NCBI GenBank assembly: GCA_035518095.1
Contig: DATIXX010000020.1
Span: 697 to 64,696 of the forward strand
Length of the DNA: 64,000 nucleotides
Source: Burkholderiales bacterium
GTDB taxonomy: Bacteria > Pseudomonadota > Gammaproteobacteria > Burkholderiales > JAHFRG01
Direction of reading: 5' to 3'
Shown: positions 9,082 to 49,688 of the stretch, piece by piece
Layout of the letters: each line of letters opens with the position of its first letter
Numbering within the stretch: the first letter of the stretch is position 1
Notes under the pieces: generated by a model
Seen by the model: only the letters and a program-made list of their open reading frames with translations
Databases searched by the model: none
What the model was told of the DNA's origin: nothing
Position numbers and translations under genes: made by a program

Positions 9082-10248
9082 ATGAGCACAAATCGAACGG
9101 CTTCCGAAATTGCCAAGACCGAAACAGTGAACTCGCGCCGCAAATTTCTTAAAGGTGCCGCCGTTGGCACGGGCGCTGCCGCCCTTGGCTTTCCCATGAT
9201 CTCGCGCGGCGCCGGGCAGACGGTGCTCAAAATGCAGGGATCGTGGGGCGCGGGAGATATGCTGGAAGTGTACGCCATTCAGTATGTCGACATCGTCAAC
9301 GACATGGGCAAAGGCTCGGGGCTCAGGATCGACTATCTCACTGCCGGGTCGGTGGTGAAGGCGTTTGAGGTGCAAGACGCGGTCAACAAAGGCATTCTCG
9401 ACATGGGGCATTTAGTGGCCGCTTACTGGTACGGCAAGAACCGAGCGGCCTCGCTGTTTGGCACCGGCCCTTGCTGGGGCTGGAATGCCGATCAGTTCCT
9501 ATCATGGTACTACCTGGGCGGCGGCCGCCAGATGCACCTCGACCTGCTGCAAAAGACGCTAGGATTGAAGATCATTGGCTGGTACTACATGCCGATGCCC
9601 TGCCAGCCGCTCGGCTGGTTCAAGTTCCACCCGACGAGCGCGGCGCAGCTCAAGAATCTCAAGTACCGCACCGTGGGCCTCGCGACCAACGTCATGGAGG
9701 AGGTGGGTTGCAAGGTGACCCAGCTCCCCGGCGGCGAGATCATCCCCGCCATGGAGAAAGGCGTGATCGAGGCTTTCGAATACAATAATCCAACCTCGGA
9801 CCGCCGCTTTGGCGCCGCCGACGTGGCCAAGTACTACATGCTGTCGAGCTACCATCAGACCGGCGAGGCGCTCGAGATCGAGATCAACACGGCCAAGTGG
9901 AACTCTTTGTCGCCAGAGCACAAGTCGATCCTCGAGCACTCCGTGCAAGCCGCCAACTCGCAAGCGATCTGGACCGCTTTCGAACAGTATCCGAAGGACC
10001 TGCAGGATTTGATCCACAAGGACGGCGTGCACGTATACCGCACCGATCAGTCTATCCTCCAGGCCCAGCTCAACGCCTGGGACAAGGTAGTCGCGAAGTA
10101 CAGCGCCGAGGTGCCCGAATTCAAAGCGGTGTGCGACTCGCAGAAAGCGTGGGCCAAGAATAGCGCTTACTTCAACCTCCTGAATCGGGCCGACCTCAAG
10201 CTCGCCTACGACCATTACTACGGGAAGGAACTGCCGCTCGGCTTCTAG
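9082..10248 (+). CDS. TRAP transporter substrate-binding protein (DctP-type) with a twin-arginine signal
   Basis: AAGGAGG lies 6 nt upstream of the ATG at 9082. The signal is SRRKFLKGAAVGTGAAALG, followed by a DctP-like body, and DctQ/DctM genes come next. Confidence 0.85.
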   Translation: MSTNRTASEIAKTETVNSRRKFLKGAAVGTGAAALGFPMISRGAGQTVLKMQGSWGAGDMLEVYAIQYVDIVNDMGKGSGLRIDYLTAGSVVKAFEVQDAVNKGILDMGHLVAAYWYGKNRAASLFGTGPCWGWNADQFLSWYYLGGGRQMHLDLLQKTLGLKIIGWYYMPMPCQPLGWFKFHPTSAAQLKNLKYRTVGLATNVMEEVGCKVTQLPGGEIIPAMEKGVIEAFEYNNPTSDRRFGAADVAKYYMLSSYHQTGEALEIEINTAKWNSLSPEHKSILEHSVQAANSQAIWTAFEQYPKDLQDLIHKDGVHVYRTDQSILQAQLNAWDKVVAKYSAEVPEFKAVCDSQKAWAKNSAYFNLLNRADLKLAYDHYYGKELPLGF

Positions 10249-22075: not shown

Positions 22076-22995
22076 GATTTAAGCGAATTTGCCTGCAGAG
22101 CCCGAGCCTTGGGAATGTTTCGCGGTTGCCAGTGGCTGATCGCCCAGTTCCAGAGATCGTGGAGCGTGCCTCGCGTAAGTTCTTGCGGCGGCTTTTGACC
22201 GAGAAAGCACAGAACCTGCCATAGCCATAATAACGCCTCCGCCTTATTCACTGCTGGCGCGAGAGTCTGCTTGCTTAGCTTCTCTCCCGCGCTGTTCAGC
22301 GCTACCGGCAGGTGCATGTAATTCGGGGTCGGGTAGCCCAGCAGCTTTTGCAAATAAAGCTGGCGGGGAGTCGAGCTCAGCAGATCGGCACCGCGCACGA
22401 CATCGGTGATTCCCTGTTCCGCGTCGTCAACGACAACAGCGAGTTGATATGCGTACACTCGGTCTGCGCGGTACAGCACGTAATCCCCGACATTGATTTC
22501 GAGGCGCTGCGCCACGCATCCTTGTACTATATCGATGAATTCAACAAGCTGCCGGTCGGTTCTCACGCGCCACACGCGCGCACTGCGCTGCGGCTGCAGT
22601 CCGTTGCGGCAGGTACCCGGATAAACGGGGCCGTCAATCCCCGCGATTGCCGAATCTGCTATTTCGCGGCGGCTGCAGGCACAGGGATAGATCAAACCGC
22701 GGTCTCGCAGGCTGTGCAGCGCGGCATGGTACGCATCGCGACGCGTGCTCTGGTAGACAATTTCACCGTCCCATTGCATCCCGCACGCCTCGAGCGTTCG
22801 CAGAATGTCATCGCCAGCGCCGGGCTCCTCGCGCGGCGGGTCCAGATCCTCAATGCGCACCAGCCACTCGCCATTGCGGCTTCTTGCCTCTAGGAAACTG
22901 CCGACCGCAGCAACCAAGGAACCGAAATGCAGCGGCCCAGTCGGAGAGGGCGCAAAGCGGCCACGGTAAGGCGTGGGTTCTTTGGTTATTGCCAC
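22072..22995 (-). CDS. gluQ: Glutamyl-Q tRNA(Asp) synthetase
   Basis: GRFAPSPTGPLHFGS (HIGH-type), LVRIEDLD, the Zn-site Cys cluster (CACSR...GTCR) and KLSKQ are present. The GTG start at 22995 overlaps the fhcC stop by 10 nt. Confidence 0.9.
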   Translation of the reverse strand: MAITKEPTPYRGRFAPSPTGPLHFGSLVAAVGSFLEARSRNGEWLVRIEDLDPPREEPGAGDDILRTLEACGMQWDGEIVYQSTRRDAYHAALHSLRDRGLIYPCACSRREIADSAIAGIDGPVYPGTCRNGLQPQRSARVWRVRTDRQLVEFIDIVQGCVAQRLEINVGDYVLYRADRVYAYQLAVVVDDAEQGITDVVRGADLLSSTPRQLYLQKLLGYPTPNYMHLPVALNSAGEKLSKQTLAPAVNKAEALLWLWQVLCFLGQKPPQELTRGTLHDLWNWAISHWQPRNIPKARALQANSLKS

Positions 22996-23798
22996 ACTAG
23001 GATTTCACCTGTTCCCGAGTTGGCGACGTCGCCCATGTAGCGGCGCACGCTTGAGTGCGGTTCAAGCAACGCGAATTTGGTGTCAAGCGAGTGCCAGGAT
23101 TTAATGAGCAGCGTCAGATAATTTAGATGATGCGCGCCGCAATCGTTGAAAGTAGCGGGTAATTCCGCCGGCATGGAATTGAGCAGCAGAGTGCCGCGCC
23201 TCATTCCGAAGCCAGCGCCGCGTGCCGCTGTTCCCAGCACCGCAATAGTGCCAGCGATCATGCGCGACGCGCAAAAATCACCGCAATTGCCCTCGATCAG
23301 TACTTGTCCCCGACGCATGTGGTCGCCCGTGCGATCCCCGGCATTACCGGTGACGATCACGCGGCCCCCGTTCATGCCGTGCCTCTCACCGGGGATCGCC
23401 GCCGCGAGAAAATCATCAGCATTGCCGTGAATGCGCAGCAGGCCGCTTATCATGCCGCTCGCAGCATAAGCACCGGCGTTGCCGTGCAAGGTGATAGCGC
23501 CCTTTTTCATGGCGTACGCCAGGTAGGCGCCCGCATCACCGTGTATCGTGATGCTGCCGATGCTCATCGCTTGCCCGATCCGGTCGAGTTTGCAACAACT
23601 GTTATTAATTATCAGGCTGGATGCGTCATTACCACTCACATCGAAAAGCTCGCCTACCCGCAGCCTGCGGTTGCCGCACACAAGTTCTATGGCGGAAATT
23701 TGCGCATGGGTTTTCCCTTTAAGAAAATCGGGCGTGAGCGGGGACAGATCGACACGCTGGCGCGGCGTCTCTTTCAATGACAAAGTCAACGCGCTCAT
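22986..23798 (-). CDS. fhcC: Formyltransferase/hydrolase complex subunit C (FwdC-like)
   Basis: Repeated G-rich beta-helix motifs are present (HGDAGAYLAY, HGNAGAYAAS, TGNAGDRTGDHMRRG, EGNCGDF). Confidence 0.9.
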   Translation of the reverse strand: MSALTLSLKETPRQRVDLSPLTPDFLKGKTHAQISAIELVCGNRRLRVGELFDVSGNDASSLIINNSCCKLDRIGQAMSIGSITIHGDAGAYLAYAMKKGAITLHGNAGAYAASGMISGLLRIHGNADDFLAAAIPGERHGMNGGRVIVTGNAGDRTGDHMRRGQVLIEGNCGDFCASRMIAGTIAVLGTAARGAGFGMRRGTLLLNSMPAELPATFNDCGAHHLNYLTLLIKSWHSLDTKFALLEPHSSVRRYMGDVANSGTGEILVWQ

Positions 23799-24691
23799 GA
23801 CATGATTTGACGCAATTGAAAATTAAACTGTCCAAGCTTGCCGCCGTAATTGCCCGCGGTGACGCGGCGTATGCCGTTTTTGACCCCGAGCCCGCACACT
23901 GCTGCAATGCCCGCCTGCATGGCGCTGCGCACATCGGCTTCAGTCAATCCGTCAATAACGATTTCCAGCACCGCGTGCACTTCTTCGGAAAGTTCTGATC
24001 GTGTGATGCCGCGAATAGTCGGACAAAATGCATCGTTGGTGGAGGCCATCAGCGTTTTGTATTTGGAGCCGACTTTAGAGCCCGAGCGCACCACACCGCC
24101 AGGGAAGGGCATAATGACGTTGGGCACTTTGCGCATGGCTTCAATAGCCGCCTCACCCGCAGCGAGCGCCTGCGATTGGGATTCCGCGAGAATCAGGAAG
24201 TTCCCTCCACCCACTGCTTTTACCATGCCGGTTGTTTCTTCGCACAGAAACTCGCCGTCCATTACCGGCACGCGCCACAACCGTTTGCCCCCGATCAATT
24301 TGGACGACTGGAACCCGTCCCCGAAATAACGCAGATTCTTGCCCAACGGTAATCGCTCGCCTTCCGAAATTCCGGCAAACGCGGCGCTGGTGGGAGAGGT
24401 CAGTACACATTGCCCGATGCGCCTTTCCAGTTGTTTCGCGAGCTCCTTGCCTGAAACCGCGAATAACAAAATCGCCGCGCCCGGTCGCCCGTCCGGCGTA
24501 TCCTCAGGTTCGAGCTTGCGTTCAATTCCAGCCTCGCAGCCGCAGGCAATGACCGAGGTGGCAAAACCGGTGGCCGCGTTGGCCGCGTGATAGGCCCATT
24601 TGAGATTGTATGCGGTGATGACGACGCGTGTCGCCTTCATGCCGAAGGCTTCAGCAAACGTGTCGTCTATAGTGACGCCGTTAATGACCAT
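23795..24691 (-). CDS. fhcD: Formylmethanofuran:H4MPT formyltransferase (Ftr)
   Basis: 298 aa; MVINGVTIDDTFAEAF..., the Ftr-like length, and its position in the fhc cluster support the call. Confidence 0.9.
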   Translation of the reverse strand: MVINGVTIDDTFAEAFGMKATRVVITAYNLKWAYHAANAATGFATSVIACGCEAGIERKLEPEDTPDGRPGAAILLFAVSGKELAKQLERRIGQCVLTSPTSAAFAGISEGERLPLGKNLRYFGDGFQSSKLIGGKRLWRVPVMDGEFLCEETTGMVKAVGGGNFLILAESQSQALAAGEAAIEAMRKVPNVIMPFPGGVVRSGSKVGSKYKTLMASTNDAFCPTIRGITRSELSEEVHAVLEIVIDGLTEADVRSAMQAGIAAVCGLGVKNGIRRVTAGNYGGKLGQFNFQLRQIMS

Positions 24692-24780
24692 GATAGTTTA
24701 CTTATCTCTGAACCGCGGAGACGCGGAGGCGCTGAGAAGACAAATGTTTACTCTGCGTCCCAGAGCCTCTGCGGTAAAAA

Positions 24781-26451
24781 TCATGTTTGTTTGCGGCAGG
24801 GATGCGACAGAAGCTTGTTAGCGTGTCCAAATTCCTGCATCTCGTCATCACTGATTTTGAAATTGTCCATCCGCATCGTCTGGTAGCGTTCGAAATAAGT
24901 TTTAAGCGGCTGCTCAATGCTTTTATCGTACTCAGGTTTTACCACATGTGTATTGCCCCAGGAAACTTTGGTTATTTTGCCGTTTTGAACCACCAGTTCG
25001 CCGTCCTTAAACACATAGCGGGGCTGGGCGAACATTTTTTGCTTGTCGGCATCGTCGCTGTAGACGGTAATATCGGCGCCCGCTCCGGGACCGAGATGCC
25101 CGCGGTCGGTAAGGCCCAGGATTTTCGCTGGGGCGGCGCGAGTCATGATGGCGATTTCATAAAGGGAATATTCGCGCGTAAGACTTGCCAGCGTGCTTTC
25201 CGCGGCAGCGTCAGGGTTAATCGTGTCGAGCATGCTGTTTCGATAGGTCTTGTCCATGAGCAGCTTAATCAGGTGGGGGTAACTCATGAATGGCGCGCCG
25301 TTAGGGTGATCGGTGGTGATGAAAATGCGCCATGGGTCGCTGACCATCAGGAAAATTTCAAGGCCGATCGCCCATTGCAATGCATTGACGAAATTCGTGT
25401 CGCGATAACGAAACGGCACCACACCGCAGCCGGCATCGCACTCGATGTCCATCACGACCCATTTTTTTGGGCGGCCGAACGGCGCATTGCGGAACTGCGT
25501 CATGCTGTCGCCGGAAGCGGTGACGGTCTGGCCAAACATGATTTGCCCCACGTCTGTGGAAATGTTTTTGTTCTGGTTAATCGCCTCGGCGACGCGCGCG
25601 GCACCCGATGAAAATTTCCGGTCACCCTCGGTTCCATAGCTGTGGAACTGGATATGGGTAAGATGCATCGGCAAGCCTTCGGCAGCTTTTACGGTTTCCA
25701 ATGTGGTTGCGACATTTCCCGGTACGCCGAGATTGCATCCGTGTACATGCAAGGGGTGCGGTACGCCAAGGTCGCTGAGCGCTCGCGCCAAAACCGTGAG
25801 AATCTGGCGTGGCGTCACCTGATAATAGGAATGGTCCTCATCCAGGTCCATCGCGCGCTGGTTGAATTTAAATGCCGAGATGCCTCCAGGATTCACAACC
25901 TTGATGCCGATGCAGTGCGAGGAATTCAGCGTCCACGCCACGTAATCGTTGATCGCTTTTTGATCGGATTTAGCGGCCATCATTCTCAGTAGGAAATCGT
26001 CGCTTCCTAAAAGCGCGTAACCGCCCTTGTCCACGATGGGCGTGTCGCCCATTTCCATGTGCGCCTGGCGCGCATTCATCGGCAACACCGCCGGCTCGAA
26101 GCACGCGGTATAGCCCATTTCCGCATAGCGATAGCCCGTGGTAAGCGTGGCGGGCGCCGCATGACCGCAGCCGGAGCGGGTGAGCGACGTGCGCGCAACG
26201 ATGTCGCGGCGATGGTCTTCGGGCAGCATCGCGCGCGCGATATTCACTTTTCCCCCGCCTATGTGGGTGTGCAGATCTATTGCGCCCGCCATCACGATGT
26301 GCCCGGTCAGATCGTACTCACAGTGCGTGCGCTCATCGTGAACAGGCGCGGCGACGATACGGCCATCGCGCACATATAAATCCCGCACTTCCCCGTTCAC
26401 CTGATTGGCGGGGTCGTAAACTTTGCCGCCTTTGAGTTTCGTGAGCATCAA
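24781..26451 (-). CDS. fhcA: Formyltransferase/hydrolase complex subunit A (FwdA-like amidohydrolase)
   Basis: 556 aa with the metal-dependent hydrolase motif AIDLHTHIGGGKV and FwdA-like overall features. The start overlaps the fhcB stop. Confidence 0.9.
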   Translation of the reverse strand: MMLTKLKGGKVYDPANQVNGEVRDLYVRDGRIVAAPVHDERTHCEYDLTGHIVMAGAIDLHTHIGGGKVNIARAMLPEDHRRDIVARTSLTRSGCGHAAPATLTTGYRYAEMGYTACFEPAVLPMNARQAHMEMGDTPIVDKGGYALLGSDDFLLRMMAAKSDQKAINDYVAWTLNSSHCIGIKVVNPGGISAFKFNQRAMDLDEDHSYYQVTPRQILTVLARALSDLGVPHPLHVHGCNLGVPGNVATTLETVKAAEGLPMHLTHIQFHSYGTEGDRKFSSGAARVAEAINQNKNISTDVGQIMFGQTVTASGDSMTQFRNAPFGRPKKWVVMDIECDAGCGVVPFRYRDTNFVNALQWAIGLEIFLMVSDPWRIFITTDHPNGAPFMSYPHLIKLLMDKTYRNSMLDTINPDAAAESTLASLTREYSLYEIAIMTRAAPAKILGLTDRGHLGPGAGADITVYSDDADKQKMFAQPRYVFKDGELVVQNGKITKVSWGNTHVVKPEYDKSIEQPLKTYFERYQTMRMDNFKISDDEMQEFGHANKLLSHPCRKQT

Positions 26452-27731
26452 CGGGATTCCAGCACTTTTTCAATTTCAGCGGCAACTTGAGCCACCGAGG
26501 GCAGCGCACTCTCGCGCAGCTTTCTTAGCGGCAGAGCCACCACGTTGTCGGTGCGATAAATGTGCCCCGAATGATCAACACCGGGTGTGGCCACGGGTAT
26601 ATAAACGCGCGGTTCTTTGCGGAATTTCATGCCCCTGCGCCCGAGAACTGCCACTGGAACCGAAGTCTCCGGCGGTGTGTTTTTCTCATTGAAGCTGGAG
26701 ACCCATAACAACGCATCCGCCTCGTTTTCCCTGAGCATGCGCTCGGCAGAAAAGTGACGCGGATCGTAATAGGGCCCCCCGCTTGCAAATCCCGTGCGCA
26801 CCGGAAAACCGCACTGCCAAGTGCAAACTTGGTTGGCGGTCACATCTCCTTCGTTGCCGCCTAATGGAAGACCGCAAAAACGGGTGCTACGATTCAGATC
26901 GTTAACCAGCCCGCACAGACTTTGCACGGCAAGTTCCGCGTGTTTGAAATCAAAATCTGCGGCAGCCCAAGCAAGCACGCCATAGCGTGCGGCTTGCATG
27001 CGTGCTGCAAGCTTCTGCAATTCCTGCAACGGGACGCCGGCAATTCGAGTAGCCTGTAACTGCCTTCCGGCGATTAGACATCGCAAGGCCCCCGCGACTT
27101 CACCGATGCGAGTGATATCGCAGGCGATGACAGTCGGTTTCCGCCCGTCGGGGGCGGTTCCGGCTTGCGTGTCCAGTCCCCGTCCCAGATACACGACTTC
27201 ACGGGCGTTGCTGACAAACAGATGGTCGCGATTCCAGACATAACGTTCAAAAAAGCGCGGAAATCGGCTCGTGACATCCGTTCCCGCAAGCACCAGCAAA
27301 TCAACACGGTTTTTCAATTCGCTTAAAGTTGTAGTAACCCAGCCGCTATCCTGAAGCGCAAGAATATTACTCATGAGATAAACGCTGTTCATGTGATCTA
27401 CTACTGCGCCTATGCGATCCGCCAATTGCATTAGCGCCCGCATGCCCGCGACATCGGTGCCCAAGCCGGCGACAAGCGGTTGTTTTGCGTTGCCAAGGAA
27501 ATCGGCAACCGCGGCTGCCGCGTTATCGAGCGAAGCAGTTTTTCCGGCGATCTGCGGAGCGGCGGGTTCGGACAAACTTAATGTGGCGAACGCCCTGCTG
27601 CTGATGGGACAGCCGTTCGCAATGACCTCAAGCTTTCCGGAATGCGTGGTGATGCGCAGATCGTCGCAAACCAGTCCGCAAAACGGGCAAGGTACTTCGT
27701 CCCACATTCCGGGTGATAAAAATTGCGTCAT
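26448..27731 (-). CDS. fhcB: Formyltransferase/hydrolase complex subunit B (FwdB-like)
   Basis: 427 aa with an N-terminal CPFCGLVCDD Cys motif and a molybdopterin-oxidoreductase-like fold. It is the first gene of the fhcBADC operon. Confidence 0.85.
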   Translation of the reverse strand: MTQFLSPGMWDEVPCPFCGLVCDDLRITTHSGKLEVIANGCPISSRAFATLSLSEPAAPQIAGKTASLDNAAAAVADFLGNAKQPLVAGLGTDVAGMRALMQLADRIGAVVDHMNSVYLMSNILALQDSGWVTTTLSELKNRVDLLVLAGTDVTSRFPRFFERYVWNRDHLFVSNAREVVYLGRGLDTQAGTAPDGRKPTVIACDITRIGEVAGALRCLIAGRQLQATRIAGVPLQELQKLAARMQAARYGVLAWAAADFDFKHAELAVQSLCGLVNDLNRSTRFCGLPLGGNEGDVTANQVCTWQCGFPVRTGFASGGPYYDPRHFSAERMLRENEADALLWVSSFNEKNTPPETSVPVAVLGRRGMKFRKEPRVYIPVATPGVDHSGHIYRTDNVVALPLRKLRESALPSVAQVAAEIEKVLESR

Positions 27732-27986
27732 GGAAATATTTCGCTTGCCGAAAGAGGCGGATTGTAGTGGTTAGGCACGCCCAATACCAGCCTATAATGC
27801 GCAAATGGGTCTGCCGTGCGCGATGCAAGCTCCGAAATTTTGCTATATTCTAACAATATATCGATGGCTCGGCAGCGCAGCAAAACCGACCCTAATGCGC
27901 TGATAGAGTGACACCCTGTTCCGCGCCTGTCGCAATGACAGTTTTATCTTGTGATGACCGGCTTGAAATACAATGATAAAAATGAA

Positions 27987-28002
27987 TGGCATAATAGTTG
28001 CT
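27987..28002 (+). promoter_or_regulatory. Sigma-54 (-24/-12) promoter candidate upstream of mptG
   Basis: TGGCAT-aatag-TTGCT matches the consensus TGGCAC-N5-TTGCW with correct GG/GC spacing. It is intergenic, 29 nt upstream of the mptG ATG. Confidence 0.55.
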
Positions 28003-28030
28003 GAACGTTTTAGGTTTAAATTAAGAGATA

Positions 28031-29038
28031 ATGAACGGCTTGGCAAGCGCCGATAAAGAAGTTCAAACTGTAGTTGTGGAGGCCCCGGCGCGCTTGCACC
28101 TTGGCTTCATGGATTTGAACGGTGCCACCGGCCGGCGCTTTGGCAGCTTGGGCTTGACGCTGGAGGGGTTTAGCACACGCATTTACGCGGAACGCGCTGC
28201 GACGTTTTCGGTAGAGGGCGCACAAACGCAGCGCGCCATGCGAGTTCTGCGGCGCTTGCAGGAACGGCTGAGGTTGGACGGCGCGGTGCGAATGGCGGTG
28301 GTGCAGGCAATACCCGAGCACACGGGTCTCGGATCGGGCACGCAGCTTGCAATCGCCGCCGGCATCGCGGTCACGCGCCTTTATCAACTCAGCCTCAGCG
28401 CCAGAGAAATCGCTGCATTGCTGGACCGTGGAAGCCGCTCCGGCATTGGAATAGGGGCATTCGACCACGGCGGATTTCTCATCGATGGAGGGCGAGGCGA
28501 AAGCGAAGAGCCTCCGCGCATCACCAGCCGCATCACTTTCCCGTCAAACTGGCGGATATTGCTGATTTTCGATTTACGGGCCCAGGGTCTGCACGGCGCG
28601 GATGAGGAGAGGGCCTTTGATGCCTTGCCGCTGTTTCCGGAGGCAAGCGCCGCGCACTTGTGCCGCCTGGTACTGATGCATTTAATGCCGGCCTTGGCGG
28701 AGGCCGATGTTCTGGAATTTGGAAAAGCGGTAAGCGAACTACAGCGCGTGGTCGGCGACCATTTTGCGCCAGCGCAGGGCGGACGCTATGCGAGCCGGAA
28801 AGTAAGCGAAGTGCTTGCGTGGCTCGAACGTCAAGGCGTGAATTGCGTCGGGCAGAGCTCATGGGGGCCCACGGGATTTGCCGTAGTGGATTCCGAAATC
28901 TGCGCAGGCAAGCTGCTGTGCGAGGCTGAAAAGCGCTGGGGCGCAGATAATGCGCTGCGCTTTAAAGTCTGCGCCGCGCGCAATCGGGGTGGGGAAGTGC
29001 TGCTGCAGCAACGCAGCATCAAAACCGGGACGATCTGA
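28031..29038 (+). CDS. mptG: Beta-ribofuranosylaminobenzene 5'-phosphate (RFAP) synthase (GHMP-kinase fold)
   Basis: VVVEAPARLHLGFMDLNG, IPEHTGLGSGTQLA and GQSSWGPTGF are present, and the gene sits in the H4MPT cluster. Confidence 0.85.
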   Translation: MNGLASADKEVQTVVVEAPARLHLGFMDLNGATGRRFGSLGLTLEGFSTRIYAERAATFSVEGAQTQRAMRVLRRLQERLRLDGAVRMAVVQAIPEHTGLGSGTQLAIAAGIAVTRLYQLSLSAREIAALLDRGSRSGIGIGAFDHGGFLIDGGRGESEEPPRITSRITFPSNWRILLIFDLRAQGLHGADEERAFDALPLFPEASAAHLCRLVLMHLMPALAEADVLEFGKAVSELQRVVGDHFAPAQGGRYASRKVSEVLAWLERQGVNCVGQSSWGPTGFAVVDSEICAGKLLCEAEKRWGADNALRFKVCAARNRGGEVLLQQRSIKTGTI

Positions 29039-29060
29039 TAAACAAGTTCTCAAGGGACTT

Positions 29061-29963
29061 ATGGAAAAACCTTTTTTGCTGCACATGATAACGCCGAGTC
29101 CAAATGTCAGCCCATTCGACGTGAACATGGCATACGACGCCGGTTACAACGCGGTTGCGGCCTATACCAATATCACCCTCGACCAAGTTGCGGCGCTTAC
29201 ACAGGATGCGATATTTTCACGTGGACCAAGCGGCGTTAAACGCACCGGAATTTTCATCGGCGGACGCGAAATTGGCATGGCCGCGGACATGTTGGATGCG
29301 ACAAAACTCGCGATGGTGCCGCCATTCGAAGTATCAGTTTTCGCGGATCCTTCCGGAGCGTTCACTACCGCGGCGGCTATGGTTGCGGCGGTGGAACGGC
29401 AATTGAAACGGGTGCATCACTGCGATTTGAAAGGACTCGAAGTACTGGTGCTGGGCGGCACCGGGCCGGTGGGCACTGCTGCTGCAGTGTTGGCTTCGGG
29501 GGCGGGAGCCAAAGTCAAAATTGCAAGCCACAGCAGCGGTACCCGAGCACGCATGTCCGCGCAAGTTGCCAATGCCCGTTACGGGGCAAGCACCGAACCG
29601 GTAGACGCTAGTTCAGAAGAAAACAAAACAGCGGCTATAACGAACATGGACGTGTTGATGGCCACGGCAAAAGCCGGTGTGCAGGTGTTGAGCCAGCAGC
29701 TACTGAAACAGGCACGGCGCTTGCTGGTGGCTGCAGATATCAATGCCGTGCCGCCTGCCGGCATCGAGGGCGTGGGGCTGATGGACGATGGCGTGCCTTT
29801 TGCGGCTGGGTCCGGCAAAGCGGTAGGAATCGGCGCGCTGGCGATCGGTAACATCAAATACCAGGTGCAGCGGGGTCTCTTCGAAGCAATGTTGCGGGCA
29901 GAAGCACCGCTTTACCTAGATTTCCGCGAGGCGTTTGCATTGGCGCGCAAATATGTCAGTTGA
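29061..29963 (+). CDS. mtdB: NAD(P)-dependent methylene-tetrahydromethanopterin dehydrogenase (MtdA/B/C family)
   Basis: The ATG at 29061 gives MEKPFLLHMITPSPNVSPFDVNMAYDAGY and VLVLGGTGPVGTAAA, characteristic of the Mtd family. Confidence 0.85.
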   Translation: MEKPFLLHMITPSPNVSPFDVNMAYDAGYNAVAAYTNITLDQVAALTQDAIFSRGPSGVKRTGIFIGGREIGMAADMLDATKLAMVPPFEVSVFADPSGAFTTAAAMVAAVERQLKRVHHCDLKGLEVLVLGGTGPVGTAAAVLASGAGAKVKIASHSSGTRARMSAQVANARYGASTEPVDASSEENKTAAITNMDVLMATAKAGVQVLSQQLLKQARRLLVAADINAVPPAGIEGVGLMDDGVPFAAGSGKAVGIGALAIGNIKYQVQRGLFEAMLRAEAPLYLDFREAFALARKYVS

Positions 29964-31074
29964 AGACAAGCTTTTCCTTGTCGCCGCTCTTACCGGCAGA
30001 ACATTGGCGCAGTCCGCCAACCGCGGCGGCATTCCGGTAGTGGTGCTCGATTTATATAACGACTCGGATACCCACCGCTTTGCACAGCACAGCCGGGCGG
30101 TGGCGCAGCATGATCATGGTTTCGACGCGGCGTCACTGCTGAAAGCGGCGGACGAGCTGTGCCCGCCCCAGCGCTGCTCCGGCCTGGTATACGGTTCAGG
30201 TTTCGAGGACCAGCCGCAACTGCTCAATCAGCTCGCTACGGGCAGAGCGCTATTCGGCAATAATCCTGAGACAGTGACGCGCATAAAGGATCCGCGGCTT
30301 TTTTTTACGTTGCTCGATGGGCTTGAAATGGCGCACCCGGAAGTGCGCTTTGCACCGCCACGGCCAGCTTGCGGCTGGCTTGCAAAAAAAATTGGCGGCT
30401 ACGGTGGAATTCACGTATTGCCCGCGGCGGGCAGACAACCGGATGGAATGCATTACTACCAGAAGCTCGAGTCGGGGCGCTGCATGTCGGTAACTTTTCT
30501 CGCCGACGGTAGGAAGTCGCACATTATTGGTTTTAACGAACAGTGGACTACAAGTGCAGGATCGCCCTTTAGTTATGCTGGCGCGATTAGCCACGCGAAA
30601 CTCGATTCCGCTTTACAGGCGGAAATCGCGCAGAAGCTGAATCGGCTGGTGCAGGCAACCAGCCTCGTGGGATTGAACGGTATGGATTTTCTGCTGCGGG
30701 GCAATGAATACCGGGTGTTGGAAGTCAACCCGCGGCCTTGTGCAACCGTGGATCTTTACGATGTAGATTGCGCGGAGTCCCTTTTTTCCTGGCACCTGCG
30801 CGCATGCCGGGGCGAATTGCCTGACCTGCAGTTGGTTATACAAAAAATTACAAGAGGGCACGCAATGGTTTATGCCGAGAGGTCTCTGCGCATTTCTTTG
30901 AATACCCGATTTCCAGAATGGGTCAGTGACATTCCTGGAGCAGGAAGGGAGTACCCGCCGGGCTCGCCGCTATGCATGGTGCATGCGCAAGGCGGGTCGA
31001 CGCAGCAAGTCAAGCGGTTGCTGATGCAACGGCAAAAGATGATCGCACGGATGATTACGGAGGAAGCGGCGTGA
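29953..31074 (+). CDS. ATP-grasp protein of H4MPT islands (Orf5-type, function unknown)
   Basis: The C-terminal half has ATP-grasp features ([19 protein letters not shown]). It overlaps the mtdB stop by 11 nt. Confidence 0.7.
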
Positions 31075-32093
31075 GTGCTCAGAATCGCGATATTGCGGCC
31101 AACTCTGCGCTAAACGCGCAGTCCGCACATTGGCCCAGCGTTAATAATCAGGCTGCGCCTTTAGTGGCGGAGCTGTTGCGTGAGCATCAGGCGCTGCGTC
31201 TAGGAGTTACCCATGGGCCGCAGGGGCATACCGTCGTGGACGCCGGAATTACTTTCGACGGCGGGTTGGAAGCGGGTCGCCGCATCGCTGAAATCTGCAT
31301 GGGAGGACTCGGCACTGTGAGCCTTTGCGTAAATGCGGCCCGCTGGCCGCTGCAGGTAACCGTGCATTCCAAGAACCCAGTTTTGGCATGTCTGGGCAGC
31401 CAATATGCCGGGTGGAGCCTTTCACACGGGAGCGGTAAAGGCGCATTTCACGCATTAGGGTCAGGGCCGGGACGCGCTCTTGCCGGCAAGGAAGACCTGT
31501 TTGCTGAGCTTGGCTACCGCGACAAGGCCGACCGCACCTGCCTAGTGCTTGAAGTCGACAAGCCTCCACCTCAAGAAGTGGTGGAAAAAGTACTGCGTGA
31601 TTGTAGGGTCGAGGCGGATAAGCTGACGTTTATCCTGACGCCGACGCGCAGTCTGGCGGGCGTTGTCCAGATCGTGGCGCGCGTTTTGGAGGTGGCTTTG
31701 CACAAGGTCCATGCGCTAGGGTTTCCACTGCAGCATGTCGTCGACGGAGCAGGAAGCGCGCCGCTACCGCCGCCTTGCAAAGATTTCATCGAAGCCATGG
31801 GGCGCACTAACGACGCCATCTTGTTCGGTGGAGAAGTGCAGCTTTTCGTGAATTGCAGTGACAGCGATGCTGCTGATCTTGCGCACAAGCTCCCATGCTC
31901 GGCCTCACGCGACTATGGCAAGCGCTTTGCGGATATTTTCAGGCATTACGAATATGATTTTTACAAGATCGACCCAATGCTATTCGCACCAGCGCAAGTC
32001 GTCGTAAGCTGTCTCGAGAGCGGTAAGAGCTTCCGTGCCGGCAAGCTCAATGCGGATTTACTGGATGTTTCATTTGGGGGAATCAATGGTTAA
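31071..32093 (+). CDS. mch: Methenyl-tetrahydromethanopterin cyclohydrolase
   Basis: The GTG at 31071 overlaps the upstream stop (GTGA). The length (~340 aa), [10 protein letters not shown] and [10 protein letters not shown] are Mch-like. Confidence 0.9.
31916..31930 (+). promoter_or_regulatory. Sigma-54-like -24/-12 match inside mch (possible internal promoter, or chance)
   Basis: TGGCAA-gcgct-TTGC(g), about 155 nt upstream of the mptN start. Confidence 0.25.
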
Positions 32094-33000
32094 GCGGATC
32101 GCCATCATCACGGATGATCCGGGCTGGCATGGCCGGCAATTACGTCAAGCATTCGCTGCACGCGGCTGCGAAAGTCAGTTTGTTTCCCTGCAGAATTGCC
32201 ATTTCGATTTAGCGCGTGCGCGCAACAGTGTAGTGATCCCGGGATTTAAAAATTGCCTGCCGGACGCCGTTTTCGTGCGTGGCGTACCCGGGGGCACGCT
32301 GGAGCAAGTTATTTTACGCCTCGACGTGCTGCACGCGCTGCGTGAACTCGGCGTGCCGGTCTACAATGATGCACGCGCTATCGAGCGCAGCGTCGATAAA
32401 GCAATGACAAGTTTTTTGTTGAAGCGTGCCGGCATTCCCACTCCGGCAACCTGGGTGTGCGAGTCCGCGGCCCGAGCGCGCGCCGTATTATTGCGCGAAA
32501 CTGCAGCGGGGCGCGAGCTGGTATTGAAACCGTTGTTCGGTTCGCAGGGATTTGGCCTGCAGCGCTTGAAGAGCGGTATGGATGTCCCCGATCTCGTCAA
32601 CTATTCGGGGACGGCTTATCTGCAACGGTTTATAGCGTGCGCCGAGGGCCGCTGGCATGACTTCCGGGTGCTGGTGGTGGGCGGCAGCGCGCGAGCGGCG
32701 ATGGTGCGGCGGGGCACCAGCTGGCTCAATAACGTGGCGCAAGGGGCTAAATGCGAAAAAGCACCGCCGGATGAGATCTTGCAAAGGCTGGCACAGGATG
32801 CGGCGTGCGCCGTGGGTATGGATTATGCCGGTGTGGATCTTATGCGTGACGTGGACGGCGAGCCTTATGTCATTGAAGTCAACGGCATTCCGGCTTGGCG
32901 CGGCTTGCAGGGGGTATGCCGAGACAACCTGGCACAATATTTGGTGGATGATCTGCTGGCTCGCAAACTGCCGCAAGCGGGTGTGAAGATGGTATGCTAA
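32086..33000 (+). CDS. mptN: RimK-family ATP-grasp ligase (MptN-like H4MPT:glutamate ligase)
   Basis: [27 protein letters not shown] and [11 protein letters not shown] are present. The ATG at 32086 overlaps the mch stop. Confidence 0.75.
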
Positions 33001-33920
33001 ATACAATCTCGCGTGAGCAGCTGGCGCAGGCATTGAAGGGCGCATGCCTTGCGGAAATCCGCGCGCCGAAGCCCGGCAATGTAAGCATATACAGCGCCGG
33101 CCACCATATGACCGCGCTGCAGTTTGCCGCGAGCGCTGATGCCATCTTGGCGCCGTTAACTGATTCCTGCGCCAGCGTGGGCGAGCGCATTCTACGTTCG
33201 GTTCAAGAGACGCAAAAGGCGGTGGGCTGCAACACCAATCTTGGAATCGTGCTTCTCGCCGCACCGCTAGTGTGCGCGGTTCAGCAGCACGACGCTCGCG
33301 AATTGCGACCCGCTTTGCGCGGGGTACTGGCGCAGCTTACGCAGCGCGATGCGGAGCTCGCCTATGAAGCGATTCGCCTCGCGAATCCGGCCGGGCTTGG
33401 GACTAGCCCGCGCCATGATGTGAGCGAGACACCGCAGGTGACACTGCTTGCGGCTATGCAGGAGGCGCAAGGTCGGGACAGCATCGCGCGCCAATACGCG
33501 AACGCATTTGCAGACGTTTTCGACGTGGGTGTGCCAAATGCGCGTCAAGCATTTGCCCGTTTCGCGAGTGACGAATGGGCAGTGCTCGCGGCTTATCTGG
33601 CATTACTTGCACGCTTTCCCGACAGCCACGTGGCGCGCAAGTTCGGCATTGAGTTGGCACGCGAGGTCAGTTCCCGCGCCGCGATTCTGGAAAGTGCCTG
33701 GCAGGCCAGCGAATCGCCGCATGCGATGATGCCGCAATTGCTGGGTTTGGATGCAGAGCTCAAACGCGATCAAATTAATCCGGGTACAACCGCTGATTTG
33801 AGCGTCGCCAGCCTGCTTGCCCTGCGATTGCAGGATTTGTTGGTCGGAAGCTTTACCGGCGGCGAGGCGAATCACCCCTCGCACCGTAGTAAAACGAACC
33901 CTCAGCATGTCGGCGCTTAG
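32994..33920 (+). CDS. Triphosphoribosyl-dephospho-CoA synthase (CitG/MdcB)-like protein, Orf7-type
   Basis: APKPGNVS, TNLGIVLL and INPGTTADL motifs are CitG-like. It overlaps the mptN stop. Confidence 0.75.
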   Translation: MLNTISREQLAQALKGACLAEIRAPKPGNVSIYSAGHHMTALQFAASADAILAPLTDSCASVGERILRSVQETQKAVGCNTNLGIVLLAAPLVCAVQQHDARELRPALRGVLAQLTQRDAELAYEAIRLANPAGLGTSPRHDVSETPQVTLLAAMQEAQGRDSIARQYANAFADVFDVGVPNARQAFARFASDEWAVLAAYLALLARFPDSHVARKFGIELAREVSSRAAILESAWQASESPHAMMPQLLGLDAELKRDQINPGTTADLSVASLLALRLQDLLVGSFTGGEANHPSHRSKTNPQHVGA

Positions 33921-33990
33921 GAGGGCGGCCGCCGCCGGGGATTCGGAGTTATGTTTCACTGTTTAAACAGCCAAACTAAGGAGAGGCAAA

Positions 33991-34500
33991 ATGGCGAAAA
34001 TTGATCGTGTACTCGTTGGAGAATCGCTGGTTGGCGAGGGCAATGAAGTGGCTCACGTAGACCTGATTATGGGACCGCGTGGCAGCTCAGTAGAACGTGC
34101 GTTCTGCAATGCGCTGACCAACAACAAGGACGGCTTTAGTACCTTGCTTGCGGTAGTAGCGCCCAACCTGCTAACCAAACCCAACACCATTCTATTTAAC
34201 AAGGTGACCATCAAGGGTGCCAAGCAAGCGGTCCAGATGTTTGGGCCTGCGCAGCGCGCCGTGGCGATGGCCGTTGCGGATTGCGTGCAGGATGGAACGA
34301 TTCCGTCAAATGAGGCTGACGACACTTTTATCTGTGTCGGCGTGTTCATCCACTGGTTAGCCGAGAACGACACCAAGATCTACGATTACAATTACCAGGC
34401 TACCAAGGAGGCGATTAAGCGAGCAGTGGCGGGCCAACCCAGGGCCTCTGAAGTGGTGAGCAAGAAGGGCACCGTAGCACATCCGTTCTCCCCGAAATAA
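33991..34500 (+). CDS. fae: Formaldehyde-activating enzyme
   Basis: 169 aa; [24 protein letters not shown] is diagnostic of Fae. A strong SD (AAGGAGAGG) lies upstream. Confidence 0.95.
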
Positions 34501-42945: not shown

Positions 42946-44892
42946 CTAGCGAAGGGTATCTTTATTTGGGTCTTTAATATTCAGCCGCTGCATTTTTCGG
43001 TACAGGGTATTGCGGCTGACCTTAAGTTGCCGCGCCACATTCGTGATGTTCCAATGGTGGCTTTCCAATTCGCGACACAGTGCGCCCCTCTCTGCAGACT
43101 CCAGAGGATTGAGCGCTGCCATCGTATCGTTGCGGATATCGCGCGCTGGCTCCCGGCCGCCGCCGATTTCCTGAGGTAGGTCCTTGATGGCGATGGTGTC
43201 GTCTTCGCGTAGCGCAAGCACGGTGCGCAGTACATTGCGCAACTGGCGGATATTGCCGGGCCAGCGATAACGTTCCAACGCCGCCAGGGCCTGCTCGTCA
43301 ATTTCAACTTTACGGCTCTCGGTATTTTCTGTTGCCAGAATATTTTTTATTAGGCTGCGCTTATCGGCGCGCTCGCGCAGCGGGGGCAAGGAAACACTGA
43401 GTCCGTTGAGGCGGTAATACAGATCCTGGCGGAACTCTCCCTTAAGTATTTTTTCAGTAAGATTGCAATGCGTGGCGCTGATCAGTTTGATATCCACTTT
43501 TACCGGGAGCTCGCTGCCGAGAGGCAGGACCTCGCGTTCTTCGAGCACGCGCAGCAGCCGCGCCTGAAGCTGGATCGGCATATCTCCGATTTCGTCCAGG
43601 AACAATGTGCCCCCGTTCGCCTGAAAAATTTTTCCTCTCTGGCCTTCCCTGCTTGCGCCGGTGAACGCTCCGGCCTTGTACCCAAACAATTCGGACTCGA
43701 TCAGCGTTTCCGGAATGGACGCACAATTGATAGCCACGAACGGCTTATCGGCGCGGCTGCTCGAATAGTGCAGGGCTTTGGCGAACATTTCCTTACCTGT
43801 GCCGGTTTCTCCATAAATAAGCACCGCCACTTCACGGCTCAGCACGCGCTTGGCCGCACCGATATTGCGCTGCATTAATGGATCGCCAAACTCCAGCTCA
43901 TCAAGCGGTGAGGTCCCGGCTGCAGGAGGGGTGTTTAAGCCTTTCCGGTACCCGCGCGGCGCGGCCGGAACCGGCTTGACGCCTTCGGGCTGTTGTGCAA
44001 CCGCGAAATAGCGGCCGCCGTGTCGCGCTTCGAAGATCGGCATCGGGCGGAATGAATTGCGCGAGGAAAGCTCAAGCGAGGATTGCAGTGTTGTATTGAA
44101 CAATTCGCCAATGTCCTTGCCGCAAACATCGCGCGGCACCGAATATCCGAGCTGAAATAAAGCGCTGTGATTCGCCGCCATCACGCGGCCGTCCCCTGCA
44201 AAAGCGATCGCGCCCTCGCCCAGGGTGCCCACAAATTCAGGTCGGCTGTGGAAGCGCACGATGAATTCCCTGCTGAAATTCGAAAGAAAAACCCGGTTCT
44301 CTATCATTTGCGCCGACATGTTGACCAGTACCAGGGTGTGCTGCTGTGCCAGCCGAGATTCCCCCGAAGCATCCAATACGGCAAGCAGCTTTCCCTCGTG
44401 GTCGAAAATCGGCGCGGCGGAGCAGGTAAGCCCGATATTGCGCGCCAGGAAATGTTCCCGGTGATGAATGATCAGCGGTTTTTTTTCGATCAGGCAGGTG
44501 CCCATTCCATTGGTACCTTGGTATTGCTCGCTCCACACCGCGCCCAGCATCAAGCCTGTTTTTGACGCGGTAACGGTGAACTCAGGGTCACCAAAATAAC
44601 TGAGCAGCACGCCGTCCACATCGGTAAGCATGATGGCGTACCGCGAGCCCGCGAGTTGCTGATAAAGATTGGACATTTCGGTCTTGGCTATAGACAGTAC
44701 CTCGACGATTCGCTCCTGGCGTTCCAGCAATTCGCGCCGGTCCACGACGGCCGGGTCCCGGGGGCCTGCAGGGTCCAACCGGTAATCGTCGAGGCAACGC
44801 TTCCAGGAACGGATGACTCTGGCGTCGTCAAATTTTACCGCGCCCTTCAGGACGGAATGAATGAACTTGGCGTGCGTGGTGAGATCAGACAT
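42946..44892 (-). CDS. Sigma-54-dependent enhancer-binding protein with an N-terminal GAF-type sensor (AcoR-like)
   Basis: Walker A GETGTGKE, the GAFTGA loop (KAGAFTGA), LFLDEIGDM and a C-terminal Fis-type HTH (NITNVARQLKVSRNTLYRKM) are present. The N-terminal ~300 aa are AcoR/GAF-like. Confidence 0.9.
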   Translation of the reverse strand: MSDLTTHAKFIHSVLKGAVKFDDARVIRSWKRCLDDYRLDPAGPRDPAVVDRRELLERQERIVEVLSIAKTEMSNLYQQLAGSRYAIMLTDVDGVLLSYFGDPEFTVTASKTGLMLGAVWSEQYQGTNGMGTCLIEKKPLIIHHREHFLARNIGLTCSAAPIFDHEGKLLAVLDASGESRLAQQHTLVLVNMSAQMIENRVFLSNFSREFIVRFHSRPEFVGTLGEGAIAFAGDGRVMAANHSALFQLGYSVPRDVCGKDIGELFNTTLQSSLELSSRNSFRPMPIFEARHGGRYFAVAQQPEGVKPVPAAPRGYRKGLNTPPAAGTSPLDELEFGDPLMQRNIGAAKRVLSREVAVLIYGETGTGKEMFAKALHYSSSRADKPFVAINCASIPETLIESELFGYKAGAFTGASREGQRGKIFQANGGTLFLDEIGDMPIQLQARLLRVLEEREVLPLGSELPVKVDIKLISATHCNLTEKILKGEFRQDLYYRLNGLSVSLPPLRERADKRSLIKNILATENTESRKVEIDEQALAALERYRWPGNIRQLRNVLRTVLALREDDTIAIKDLPQEIGGGREPARDIRNDTMAALNPLESAERGALCRELESHHWNITNVARQLKVSRNTLYRKMQRLNIKDPNKDTLR

Positions 44893-45095: not shown

Positions 45096-45437
45096 ATGAA
45101 AAGGTATTTAGCTTGGCTGGCGCTGCTATTTTTGCCGGGGGCAGCGCTTGCTTACGATTACCCGACATACGACAGAGTGGCGTTCGTTTTGCAATGCGCC
45201 CAACAATATCCCGATTATCAGTATTACGGGTCCCTGTATAAGTGTTCCTGCGCGATTGACGCCATCGCCAAAAAAATGAAATACGACGATTTCGTGGAAC
45301 AATTTACCGCGGCGCGGGGACAACACACTGCAGGCGAGGGCGGCGGCATTTTCCGGGATGCACCCGAGATCAAAAAAATGGCGAAACGCTACGAAGAAAT
45401 CAAAGCCGAGGCTGAAAAGGAATGTCTGCTCAAGTAA
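45096..45437 (+). CDS. Hypothetical small secreted Cys-containing protein
   Basis: GAGGAG lies upstream. Signal peptide MKRYLAWLALLFLPGAALA; the mature protein has 4 Cys. No family was recognised. Confidence 0.5.
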   Translation: MKRYLAWLALLFLPGAALAYDYPTYDRVAFVLQCAQQYPDYQYYGSLYKCSCAIDAIAKKMKYDDFVEQFTAARGQHTAGEGGGIFRDAPEIKKMAKRYEEIKAEAEKECLLK

Positions 45438-46605: not shown

Positions 46606-46675
46606 TTTTTGCCTTCCAAAAGCGGGTTCGGAAACACCACTGACAGTAGTATAGACGCGAACCTCAGCCCAGTCA

Positions 46676-47602: not shown

Positions 47603-47644
47603 TTCTGCTACTATTACACAAATTGTCGTTAAGTAAAAAATCCG

Positions 47645-49525: not shown

Positions 49526-49545
49526 TCATTTCTGACACAAGATGT
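49526..49545 (+). repeat. Direct repeat copy 1 upstream of xoxF (TTCATTTCTGACACAAGATG)
   Basis: It is 18/20 identical to 49566-49585, with a 40-nt start-to-start spacing. Confidence 0.6.
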
Positions 49546-49565
49546 TAACTAGTTTAATTGAAGGA

Positions 49566-49585
49566 TTCATTTATGACACAAAATG
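49566..49585 (+). repeat. Direct repeat copy 2 upstream of xoxF (TTCATTTATGACACAAAATG)
   Basis: It is 18/20 identical to 49526-49545. Confidence 0.6.
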
Positions 49586-49660: not shown

Positions 49661-49688
49661 TTGATTCGGGCATATTCTGTGCTATAGT
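49661..49688 (+). promoter_or_regulatory. Sigma-70-like promoter candidate for xoxF
   Basis: TTGATT (49661-49666), a 16-nt spacer, then TATAGT (49683-49688). The predicted TSS is near 49695. Confidence 0.35.

Follow-up and report, generated by a model that had tools for sequence, protein, structure and literature searches.

The question raised by this 64,000-nucleotide stretch of DNA (here called the window), which comes from an uncultured wetland Burkholderiales-like bacterium, is how transcription of its tetrahydromethanopterin (H4MPT) formaldehyde-oxidation operon is started and what controls it. The operon begins with mptG and continues through mtdB, orf5, mch, mptN and orf7 to fae, and directly ahead of it, at positions 27987-28002 of the + strand, is a sequence resembling the -24/-12 promoter of sigma-54 (RpoN) RNA polymerase. 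The regulation of the H4MPT pathway, and its presence in non-methylotrophs such as Thiobacillus, lucinid-clam symbionts and uncultured Burkholderiales, are poorly understood. On the comparative evidence given below, we consider it highly probable that 27987-28002 is a functional sigma-54 promoter for mptG-mtdB-orf5-mch-mptN-orf7, and probably for fae too.

The motif ahead of mptG and its conservation

Read directly from the + strand, the element consists of TGGCAT (27987-27992), the spacer AATAG (27993-27997) and TTGCT (27998-28002). Aligned to TGGCAC-N5-TTGCW, TGGCATaatagTTGCT has a single mismatch, C to T at -21, and its GG (27988-89) and GC (28000-01) are 10 bp apart, which is the canonical sigma-54 spacing. 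It is located in the 299-nt intergenic region between fhcB and mptG and points to mptG, whose ATG at 28031 is 29 nt past the last base of the motif, leaving 28 nt between them. A preliminary description of this DNA had given the same motif with exact GG/GC spacing and placed it in the intergenic region 29 nt upstream of mptG, and on both counts it agrees with the sequence and the coordinates. By standard sigma-54 geometry, 12 nt past the C of the -12 element, transcription is predicted to start at 28012..28014 (+), which would give a leader of 18 nt, with AAGAGA inside it, ahead of the ATG.

Scanned with a simple weight matrix for sigma-54 promoters, 27987-28002 has the top score on either strand of the window, 15.8, and is the sole high-scoring match that is both intergenic and followed by a gene on the same strand. 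With the score set at 11 or more, the scan finds nothing ahead of fae, the mfnD-like operon or the gene for the sigma-54 activator discussed below. The matches at 31916, 55352 and 45178 were rejected as promoters, being internal to coding sequence or without a downstream gene on the same strand. A consensus scan of the + strand of the fhcB-mptG intergenic region finds no sigma-70-like promoter, nor does one of the relevant strand of the corresponding region in a Thiobacillus thioparus-like genome (L038), and an Rfam search of the intergenic region and leader finds no riboswitch or other RNA element.

The motif can be followed through 80 genome loci with MptG orthologs at 48-89% identity, which are phylogenetically related and give counts that are not independent. 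The nearest are metagenome-assembled genomes (MAGs) with MptG 88-89% identical to that of the window, and the order fhcB <-> mptG-mtdB-orf5-mch is retained in most of the 80. With up to 1 mismatch to TGGCAC-N5-TTGCW tolerated, 35 of the 80 loci have a GG-N10-GC motif no more than 150 nt upstream of mptG; with up to 2, 50 do (about 22-fold enriched). By weight matrix, the mptG side of 43 out of 66 fhcB-mptG intergenic regions surpasses the 99th percentile of background. Among the carriers are Pelomicrobium, Thiobacillus, Parasulfuritortus, Thiohalobacter-like and Arenicellales MAGs, Sedimenticolaceae and Candidatus Thiodiazotropha, and they span Beta- and Gammaproteobacteria whose MptG is 49-62% identical to that of the window. 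The preliminary description had named conservation upstream of mptG orthologs as a point on which its reading could fail; what is found is strong conservation in both of these classes, with a density at up to 1 mismatch of 3.03 per kb upstream of mptG versus 0.025 per kb in the rest of the loci (both strands counted), which is about 120-fold. Across loci the T-GG-CA and TTGC letters are invariant while the spacer and flanks diverge, the orientation toward mptG and the distance to it are kept across lineages, and the motif is retained also where the upstream neighbor is fhcD/fhcC and not fhcB.

A strong, well-placed mptG motif is seen in none of the 11 Methylophilaceae loci, and likewise in none of the loci from Ferrovum, Azospirillum and Geminicoccaceae. 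For the Methylophilaceae, which are obligate or restricted methylotrophs, this suggests a different, possibly constitutive, mode of mptG expression. Their loci (L030, L036, L045, L046, L051, L062, L069, L070, L072, L075 and L076) keep the fhcB <-> mptG order.

RNA is available from relatives. Four RNA-seq runs carry a near-identical T. thioparus sequence (L038), and in these the mptG-side contigs begin at L038 position 2965 (three runs) or 2967 (one run), the fhcB-side contigs end at 2703-2709, and the 255 nt in between, 2710-2964, have zero coverage in all four. The uncovered gap encloses both of the sigma-54 motifs of this region (2926-2941 on the + strand and, facing fhcB, 2752-2737 on the - strand), together with the palindrome described in the next section. 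With predicted starts at 2952 and 2726, the contigs are short by 13 nt and 17-23 nt, and a shortfall of 13-23 nt is what we would expect of low-depth k-mer assemblies at RNA 5' ends. In a Thiodiazotropha gill metatranscriptome, a contig starts at L052 position 2990, joined directly to Illumina adapter, with the motif at 2937-2952, so that it begins 27 nt past the predicted start position. The RNA of the relatives, which does not resolve single bases, argues against upstream read-through and begins just downstream of the motifs, which is consistent with the predicted promoters and not decisive.

The upstream element and the fhcB side

Also of interest is what an activator of this promoter would bind. 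A de novo expectation-maximization motif search over 37 non-redundant loci, run from several seeds, converged on GTGACACACTGnnCCGC, with 14 bits of information. The window has at 27908..27924 (+) the sequence GTGACACCCTGTTCCGC, of the pattern GTGACAC-N-CTG..CCGC, a candidate activator-binding, enhancer-like element. It is a degenerate version of the palindrome GTGACA-N3-TGTCAC, which is perfect in Thiobacillus, with its start 79 nt ahead of the -24 TGGCA. The distance from the element's start to TGGCA is 78-80 nt in the window and 16 diverse loci, and shorter by one helical turn, at 68-72 nt, in Thiobacillus, Parasulfuritortus and the short-spacer Thiodiazotropha. A dyad element held at a fixed helical phase 70-80 bp from the -24 box is a hallmark of a site for an enhancer-binding protein. 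The hexamer GTGACA/TGTCAC occurs in 24 of the 37 upstream windows, versus a mean of 1.2 and a maximum of 4 in size-matched controls, and the enhancer matrix gives 27908-27924 a score of 20.6, unique in the window, where the runner-up scores 13.8.

A second conserved element, TGTCGCA at 27928..27934 (+), begins 20 nt after the enhancer-like element does, and (T)GTCGCA is kept in the window and in L001-L005, L007, L010, L012, L013, L015, L023 and L060. The preliminary description had looked in this neighborhood and proposed the inverted repeat CTGTC-N5-GACAG (27927-27941) as a possible upstream site. The repeat is present, but its right arm, GACAG, is not kept even by relatives with 88% protein identity, and its left arm is the TGTCGCA element; the place was right, and the palindrome proposed there is not the functional unit.

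Between these elements and the promoter is an A+T-rich spacer, 27947..27986 (+), in which the block GACCGGCTTGAAATACAATGATAAAA is near-invariant in an alignment of the window's own clade. The A+T fraction of the 60 nt upstream of the -24 box is 0.49 versus 0.38 across loci, and we suggest that the spacer may aid bending of the DNA. The consensus for integration host factor (IHF), WATCAANNNNTTR, has no match at up to 1 mismatch between the enhancer-like element and the -24 box in the window; at that tolerance sites are found in 6 of the 37 loci, chiefly Thiobacillus, versus 0.7 expected.

The intergenic region is shared with the divergent operon fhcB-fhcA-fhcD-fhcC (22986..27731, -), identified by NCBIfam TIGR03129, TIGR03121, TIGR03119 and TIGR03122 as encoding the formyltransferase/hydrolase complex, and the divergent fhcB/mptG layout is kept in most loci. 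An opposite-strand motif facing fhcB, with the consensus TGGCA(C/T)G-N4-CTGC(A/T), exceeds the 99th percentile of background in 34 of the 66 intergenic regions, and a strong TGGCAC-N5-CTGCA is found at this position in Thiobacillus, Pelomicrobium, Thiodiazotropha and others. The version in the window is a weak sigma-54-like element at 27774..27789 (-), TGGTATTGGGCGTGCC, with GG-N10-GC retained and a predicted start near 27763. Its GG and GC are invariant in a six-sequence alignment of the window with close relatives, in which the element is degenerate. Either the promoter has weakened in the window's lineage, or the -12 region tolerates GTGC.

The distance between the two sigma-54 promoters varies within Candidatus Thiodiazotropha, where several genomes (L052, L057, L061, L067, L071, L074 and L080) have them 450-600 nt apart, versus about 190 nt in L050 and L058. 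The wide-spacing genomes have a conserved enhancer, GGTGACACATTGGTTCA, more than 200 nt from the mptG promoter, and their extra DNA looks like an insertion.

In the mechanism that we propose, sigma-54 RNA polymerase would occupy the mptG promoter as a closed complex, and a hexameric AAA+ activator would bind GTGACACCCTGTTCCGC and TGTCGCA (27908-27934), 79 nt upstream of the -24 box. The activator would contact polymerase by way of a DNA loop over the A+T-rich spacer, and ATP-driven opening of the promoter would lead to a start near 28013. The same enhancer, about 120 nt from the weaker fhcB-facing element (27774-27789, -), could serve both divergent operons, and in most other lineages both of the promoters are strong. 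The activator would most likely be the GAF-PAS-AAA+-HTH protein encoded at 42946-44892, responding to a one-carbon (C1) compound such as formaldehyde or methanol, so that the H4MPT pathway would be inducible and not constitutive. Paired sigma-54 promoters with a phased enhancer would imply tight on/off control by a dedicated sensor in the lineages that carry them, and the obligate Methylophilaceae are without the motif.

The candidate activator and the rival explanations

The gene at 42946..44892 (-) encodes a candidate sigma-54 activator of the AcoR/DhaR/MimR type, the sole sigma-54 activator among the window's open reading frames (ORFs) of at least 100 aa that were scanned. It matches Pfam GAF, Sigma54_activat, AAA_lid_14 and HTH_8, has intact GAFTGA and Walker A motifs, and heads an operon of cofactor-biosynthesis genes in the order activator-flavoprotein-DHPS-like-DUF447-MfnB (4-HFC-P synthase). 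The AlphaFold2 model, with a mean predicted local distance difference test (pLDDT) score of 76.8, shows an N-terminal helical region followed by GAF, PAS-like, AAA+ and helix-turn-helix (HTH) domains. Foldseek matches the model to ZraR, NtrX, FleQ and NtrC1, which identifies the generic sigma-54 activator fold and offers no clue to the effector. The sensor region has a weak match to the DhaR sensor 4LRX (E = 6e-4), precomputed Pfam assignments for the orthologs include MimR_N, and the JGI source names them "transcriptional regulator of acetoin/glycerol metabolism". Within the GAF domain the motifs QGTNGMGTC (residues 126-134) and L(T/S)C(S/A)AAP (155-161) contain C133 and C157, which are invariant or nearly so in 44 orthologs; speculatively, these cysteines could be reactive sites for an aldehyde effector.

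The genomic settings of the orthologs are informative about what this family may control. An ortholog of 65% identity has the same neighbor genes, lies on the same contig as L006, which has the mptG promoter and the enhancer-like element, and is divergent from an NAD-type formate dehydrogenase with a sigma-54-like site. Orthologs of 57% identity, in L150 and L160, have a GTGACA-type dyad directly upstream, as the perfect palindrome GTGACACAGTGTCAC in L150 and GTGACGCACTGTCAC in L160, followed by a sigma-54-like promoter, with flavoprotein-DHPS-like-fhcB-fhcA-DUF447-mfnB downstream. This arrangement suggests that the L150 and L160 orthologs may be autoregulated. In L150, a 234-kb metagenome contig, the span 9768-9955 ahead of the activator ortholog contains GTGACACAGTGTCAC, a further GTGACGCTGTCC and the sigma-54-like AGGCACgcttcTTGCG, with an equivalent in L160. 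A second sigma-54-like site is at L150 11999-12014, before flavoprotein-DHPS-like-fhcB-fhcA, and the ORF upstream of the L150 activator ortholog has a C-terminus that, judged by eye, is formate dehydrogenase-like.

A conserved cluster adjoins orthologs of 55-65% identity in 43 of 80 metagenome loci, and it contains adhC-like (glutathione-dependent formaldehyde dehydrogenase-like), a secreted 113-aa protein, xoxF, a cytochrome c, xoxJ-like and an mfnD-like ATP-grasp gene. TGGCAC-N5-GTGCT is found upstream of xoxF in 14 of 39 loci and TGGCAC-N5-TTGCG upstream of adhC in 5 of 14, and most of the xoxF/adhC promoters have a near-invariant GAC-TGTCAC-GAATCTGAACA some 60-90 nt ahead of the -24 box. 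By gene context, the activator family appears consistently amid C1-oxidation genes that have sigma-54-like promoters. Taking location and context together, we lean toward the island activator as the partner of the mptG promoter. That its effector is a C1 signal, formaldehyde or methanol, is a more tentative proposal, which comes from the neighboring genes.

Several points weigh against a functional sigma-54 promoter at mptG under the control of the island activator. The core TGGCA-N6-TTGC occurs 3 times in the window versus 1.19 expected from dinucleotide shuffles, 9 of 100 of which have at least 3, so that the chance estimate of about 0.5 in the preliminary description was too low, and TGGCAC-N5-TTGCW with up to 1 mismatch occurs 6 times versus 3.5 expected. 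The motif count by itself is not significant and is no evidence; the weight falls on matrix rank and conservation. The matrix is a simple one made after the published consensus and not a curated one, and scores comparable or equal to that of the mptG site occur within coding regions, as at 28336 and 29710. The fhcB-side element of the window has a matrix score of 8.4, below the 95th percentile of background at 11.3. No rpoN is found among the scanned window ORFs (at least 100 aa), and its presence in the genome is implied only by the intact activator. No RNA run is listed for the window's own organism, all listed runs with more than a trace of the stretch being wetland DNA metagenomes, and the RNA of the relatives consists of assembled contigs that are unstranded, 13-27 nt short, and cannot separate a sigma-54 promoter from a co-located one. 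From the core count and the coding-region scores, one could argue that the motif is there by chance and that the operon is transcribed from an unrecognized sigma-70-type or other promoter in the same A+T-rich region. We regard that as very improbable, given the roughly 120-fold enrichment upstream of orthologs in spite of diverged spacers and flanks, the partner enhancer-like element at a fixed helical phase, the lack of a sigma-70-like site on the + strand by consensus scan, and RNA contigs in relatives that begin just past the motif. We would give as little credence to a poised or roadblock site, at which sigma-54 holoenzyme binds without driving mptG and modulates the divergent fhcB promoter. 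Genome-wide mapping in E. coli and Salmonella is said to have found many sigma-54 binding sites without an associated transcript, and the weakness of the fhcB-side element in the window also counts for such a role; set against this, the site points to mptG at 29 nt from the ATG with a suitable leader length, is kept across lineages, is retained where the upstream neighbor is not fhcB, and is followed at once by mptG RNA coverage in relatives.

A different explanation accepts the promoter and enhancer as real and sigma-54-dependent, and has their activator encoded elsewhere, with the island activator serving, for example, xoxF. The preliminary description had named the gene at 42946-44892 as the partner regulator; the gene is real and its domains intact, while its link to the promoter is plausible and circumstantial. 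In Thiobacillus (L166) and Parasulfuritortus (L167), which have the promoters and a palindromic enhancer, a search out to 10 kb from mch finds no activator gene. The enhancer matrix of the H4MPT loci fits the upstream elements of the xoxF/adhC type weakly, with 6 of 18 above the 95th percentile and these mostly by the GTGACA half-site, and it gives a score of 4.8 to the upstream region of the window's own xoxF. The 43 metagenome loci have the ortholog beside xoxF rather than beside H4MPT genes, and in Methylobacillus flagellatus a sigma-54 regulator adjoining xoxF is linked to xoxF expression (PMC9988556). On the other side, no activator besides this one turned up among the scanned ORFs of the 64-kb window, and its gene is inside the H4MPT/methanofuran biosynthesis island. 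Three clades (the window, L081/L006 and L150/L160) keep the activator with H4MPT/fhc genes under sigma-54-like promoters, the GTGACA-type dyad and sigma-54-like promoter stand directly upstream of the activator gene in L150 and L160, and the TGTCAC half-site is common to the xoxF upstream elements. An activator encoded elsewhere is thus possible, though we think it rather unlikely. A tie between the island activator and the enhancer by motif similarity was tried and set aside, the matrix match being too weak and only suggestive.

Known systems and neighboring genes

The promoters glnAp2, with NtrC, and nifH, with NifA, are the textbook comparison. They are alike in the exactly spaced GG/GC, in a dyad site about 70-120 bp upstream on a fixed helix face, and in a nearby GAFTGA AAA+ activator with a Fis-type HTH. 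The target here is different, being an operon of H4MPT formaldehyde oxidation and cofactor biosynthesis and not of nitrogen metabolism, and so is the enhancer, which has the form GTGACA-N3-TGTCAC, whereas the NtrC site is TGCACC-N5-GGTGCA and the NifA site is TGT-N10-ACA. Also unlike those systems, one enhancer is proposed to serve two divergent promoters, and the window has no IHF consensus.

AcoR (acetoin/acetaldehyde) and MimR (acetone) have the same domain architecture as the island activator and belong to the same family. Their context is acetoin or acetone catabolism, whereas that of the island activator is xoxF, adhC, H4MPT/fhc and formate dehydrogenase. Because regulators of the AcoR/MimR type answer to small carbonyl compounds, formaldehyde is a reasonable candidate effector. 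Like AcoR, MimR and the FhlA discussed below, MmoR/mmoX is a functional analogue. FrmR, HxlR, EfgA/TtmR and FlhSR have the same purpose, which is to match formaldehyde-detoxifying capacity to load, and EfgA reportedly is a formaldehyde-responsive regulator; to our knowledge none of these is a sigma-54 activator.

The regulon of FhlA in E. coli (fdhF, hyc) is similar in that a GAF-domain sigma-54 activator is paired with a C1 compound and the enzymes that dispose of it. FhlA, itself a sigma-54 activator (PMC6540204), senses formate and controls formate hydrogenlyase, whereas the window protein is of the AcoR/DhaR/MimR group. The nearest precedent is the work of Hemmann et al. 2023 on Methylobacillus flagellatus, in which the sigma-54 regulator Mfla_0343 is divergent from xoxF, with a predicted sigma-54 promoter upstream (PMC9988556). 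The likeness is that an activator gene adjoins a gene for lanthanide-dependent methanol dehydrogenase with a predicted sigma-54 promoter; the difference is that the Mfla_0343 work concerns xoxF and the lanthanide switch and not H4MPT, and that the Methylophilaceae loci in our sample are without the mptG motif.

A full-text literature search found no paper linking sigma-54 to H4MPT, fhc or mptG genes, and the papers searched do not portray the H4MPT pathway of the model methylotrophs as dependent on an enhancer, in keeping with the preliminary description, which did not know such control to be an established paradigm. A 2025 transcription-start map of Methylosinus sporium has sigma-54 motifs at nitrogen-metabolism genes only, and a study of Paraburkholderia phymatum reports fhcA and fhcD to be induced in bacteroids without a tie to rpoN. 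What we describe is an ordinary type of element, an enhancer-dependent sigma-54 promoter, on a pathway for which no published description of that kind was found. For non-methylotrophs it supplies a definite H4MPT regulatory circuit that can be tested, with exact coordinates for the promoter, operator and candidate regulator, and there are cultured carriers in T. thioparus DSM 505, Parasulfuritortus cantonensis and Pelomicrobium sp. G1. It would also tie control of H4MPT to the sigma-54 regulators recently seen beside xoxF, and the module could find use as a C1 biosensor should formaldehyde or methanol prove to be the effector.

A broader idea, which we offer as a conjecture with rather less than even prospects, is that the AcoR/MimR-type activator and the phased GTGACA-type enhancers form a master switch for the whole C1-oxidation route, with the GAF sensor, through C133 and C157, detecting formaldehyde or methanol directly. 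The route may include the XoxF methanol dehydrogenase, H4MPT- or glutathione-linked formaldehyde oxidation, Fhc and formate dehydrogenase, and the organisms concerned may be facultative and non-methylotrophic Beta- and Gammaproteobacteria, including sulfur-oxidizing symbionts. If true, the switch would be a new class of formaldehyde sensor and would explain how non-methylotrophs deploy H4MPT.

The operon downstream of the promoter covers 28031..34500 (+), as judged by NCBIfam, synteny and start codons. NCBIfam assigns mptG (28031-29038, +) to the beta-ribofuranosylaminobenzene 5'-phosphate synthase family and identifies mch (31071-32093, +), mptN (32086-33000, +) and fae (33991-34500, +). The remaining three, mtdB, orf5 and orf7, have no specific NCBIfam match. 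The first two, mtdB (about 29061-29963, +) and the ATP-grasp protein orf5 (29953-31074, +), are named from synteny in all 80 loci and from Pfam on the orthologous Thiobacillus genes; the CitG-like orf7 (32994-33920, +) is named from a weak NCBIfam CitG/MdcB match, synteny and Pfam on its Thiobacillus ortholog. The Pfam matches on the Thiobacillus genes, which back these three names, are Mpt_N and CitG. The stop/start overlaps of 11, 4, 8 and 7 nt given in the preliminary description for a translationally coupled operon stand at mtdB/orf5, orf5/mch, mch/mptN and mptN/orf7; between mptG and mtdB there is probably a gap of 22 nt (ATG 29061).

Further along the island, at 49668-49683 (+), GGGCAT-attct-GTGCT is found in a 32-nt block upstream of a XoxF-type pyrroloquinoline quinone (PQQ) dehydrogenase gene (ATG 49826). 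The block is identical in the window and in L086, whose xoxF is 88% identical, and a hand estimate puts the matrix score of the element at about 10.3, below the threshold of 11. Upstream of that are two conserved TGACAC-containing sequences, TTTCTGACACAAGrTGTTAA (49531-49550) and TTTATGAyACAAAAT (49571-49585), with the inverted repeat TTGTAAATTAACAA. Because the orthologous xoxF genes beside activator orthologs carry TGGCAC-N5-GTGCT, the xoxF of the window may belong to the same sigma-54 regulon.

Divergent from the activator gene, at 45096-45437 (+), is the gene for a secreted 113-aa protein with the signal peptide MKRYLAWLALLFLPGAALA and no Pfam match; about 50 of 82 loci have a homolog alongside the activator ortholog, most often immediately ahead of xoxF. 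Between the activator and the xoxF cluster are a SoxY-SoxZ fusion (45760-46839, -) and a SoxH-like metallo-beta-lactamase (46676-47656, -). A linkage described as "soxYZ-S4 next to xoxF/fdh" is on record for lucinid symbionts (PMC11237559), and the sox genes of the window fit it, which widens the linkage to a wetland Burkholderiales-like organism. Finally, Noviherbaspirillum sp. Root189 (L083, 8311-19385) has an activator ortholog of 61% identity surrounded by pqqABCDE, a class-III-type zinc alcohol dehydrogenase (ADH) gene with a GST-like gene, and xoxF-cytochrome c-xoxJ-like. Its ADH and GST-like genes resemble glutathione-dependent formaldehyde oxidation, and sigma-54-like sites are found upstream of xoxF, of the gene for the 113-aa protein, of the ADH gene and of the mfnD-like ATP-grasp gene.

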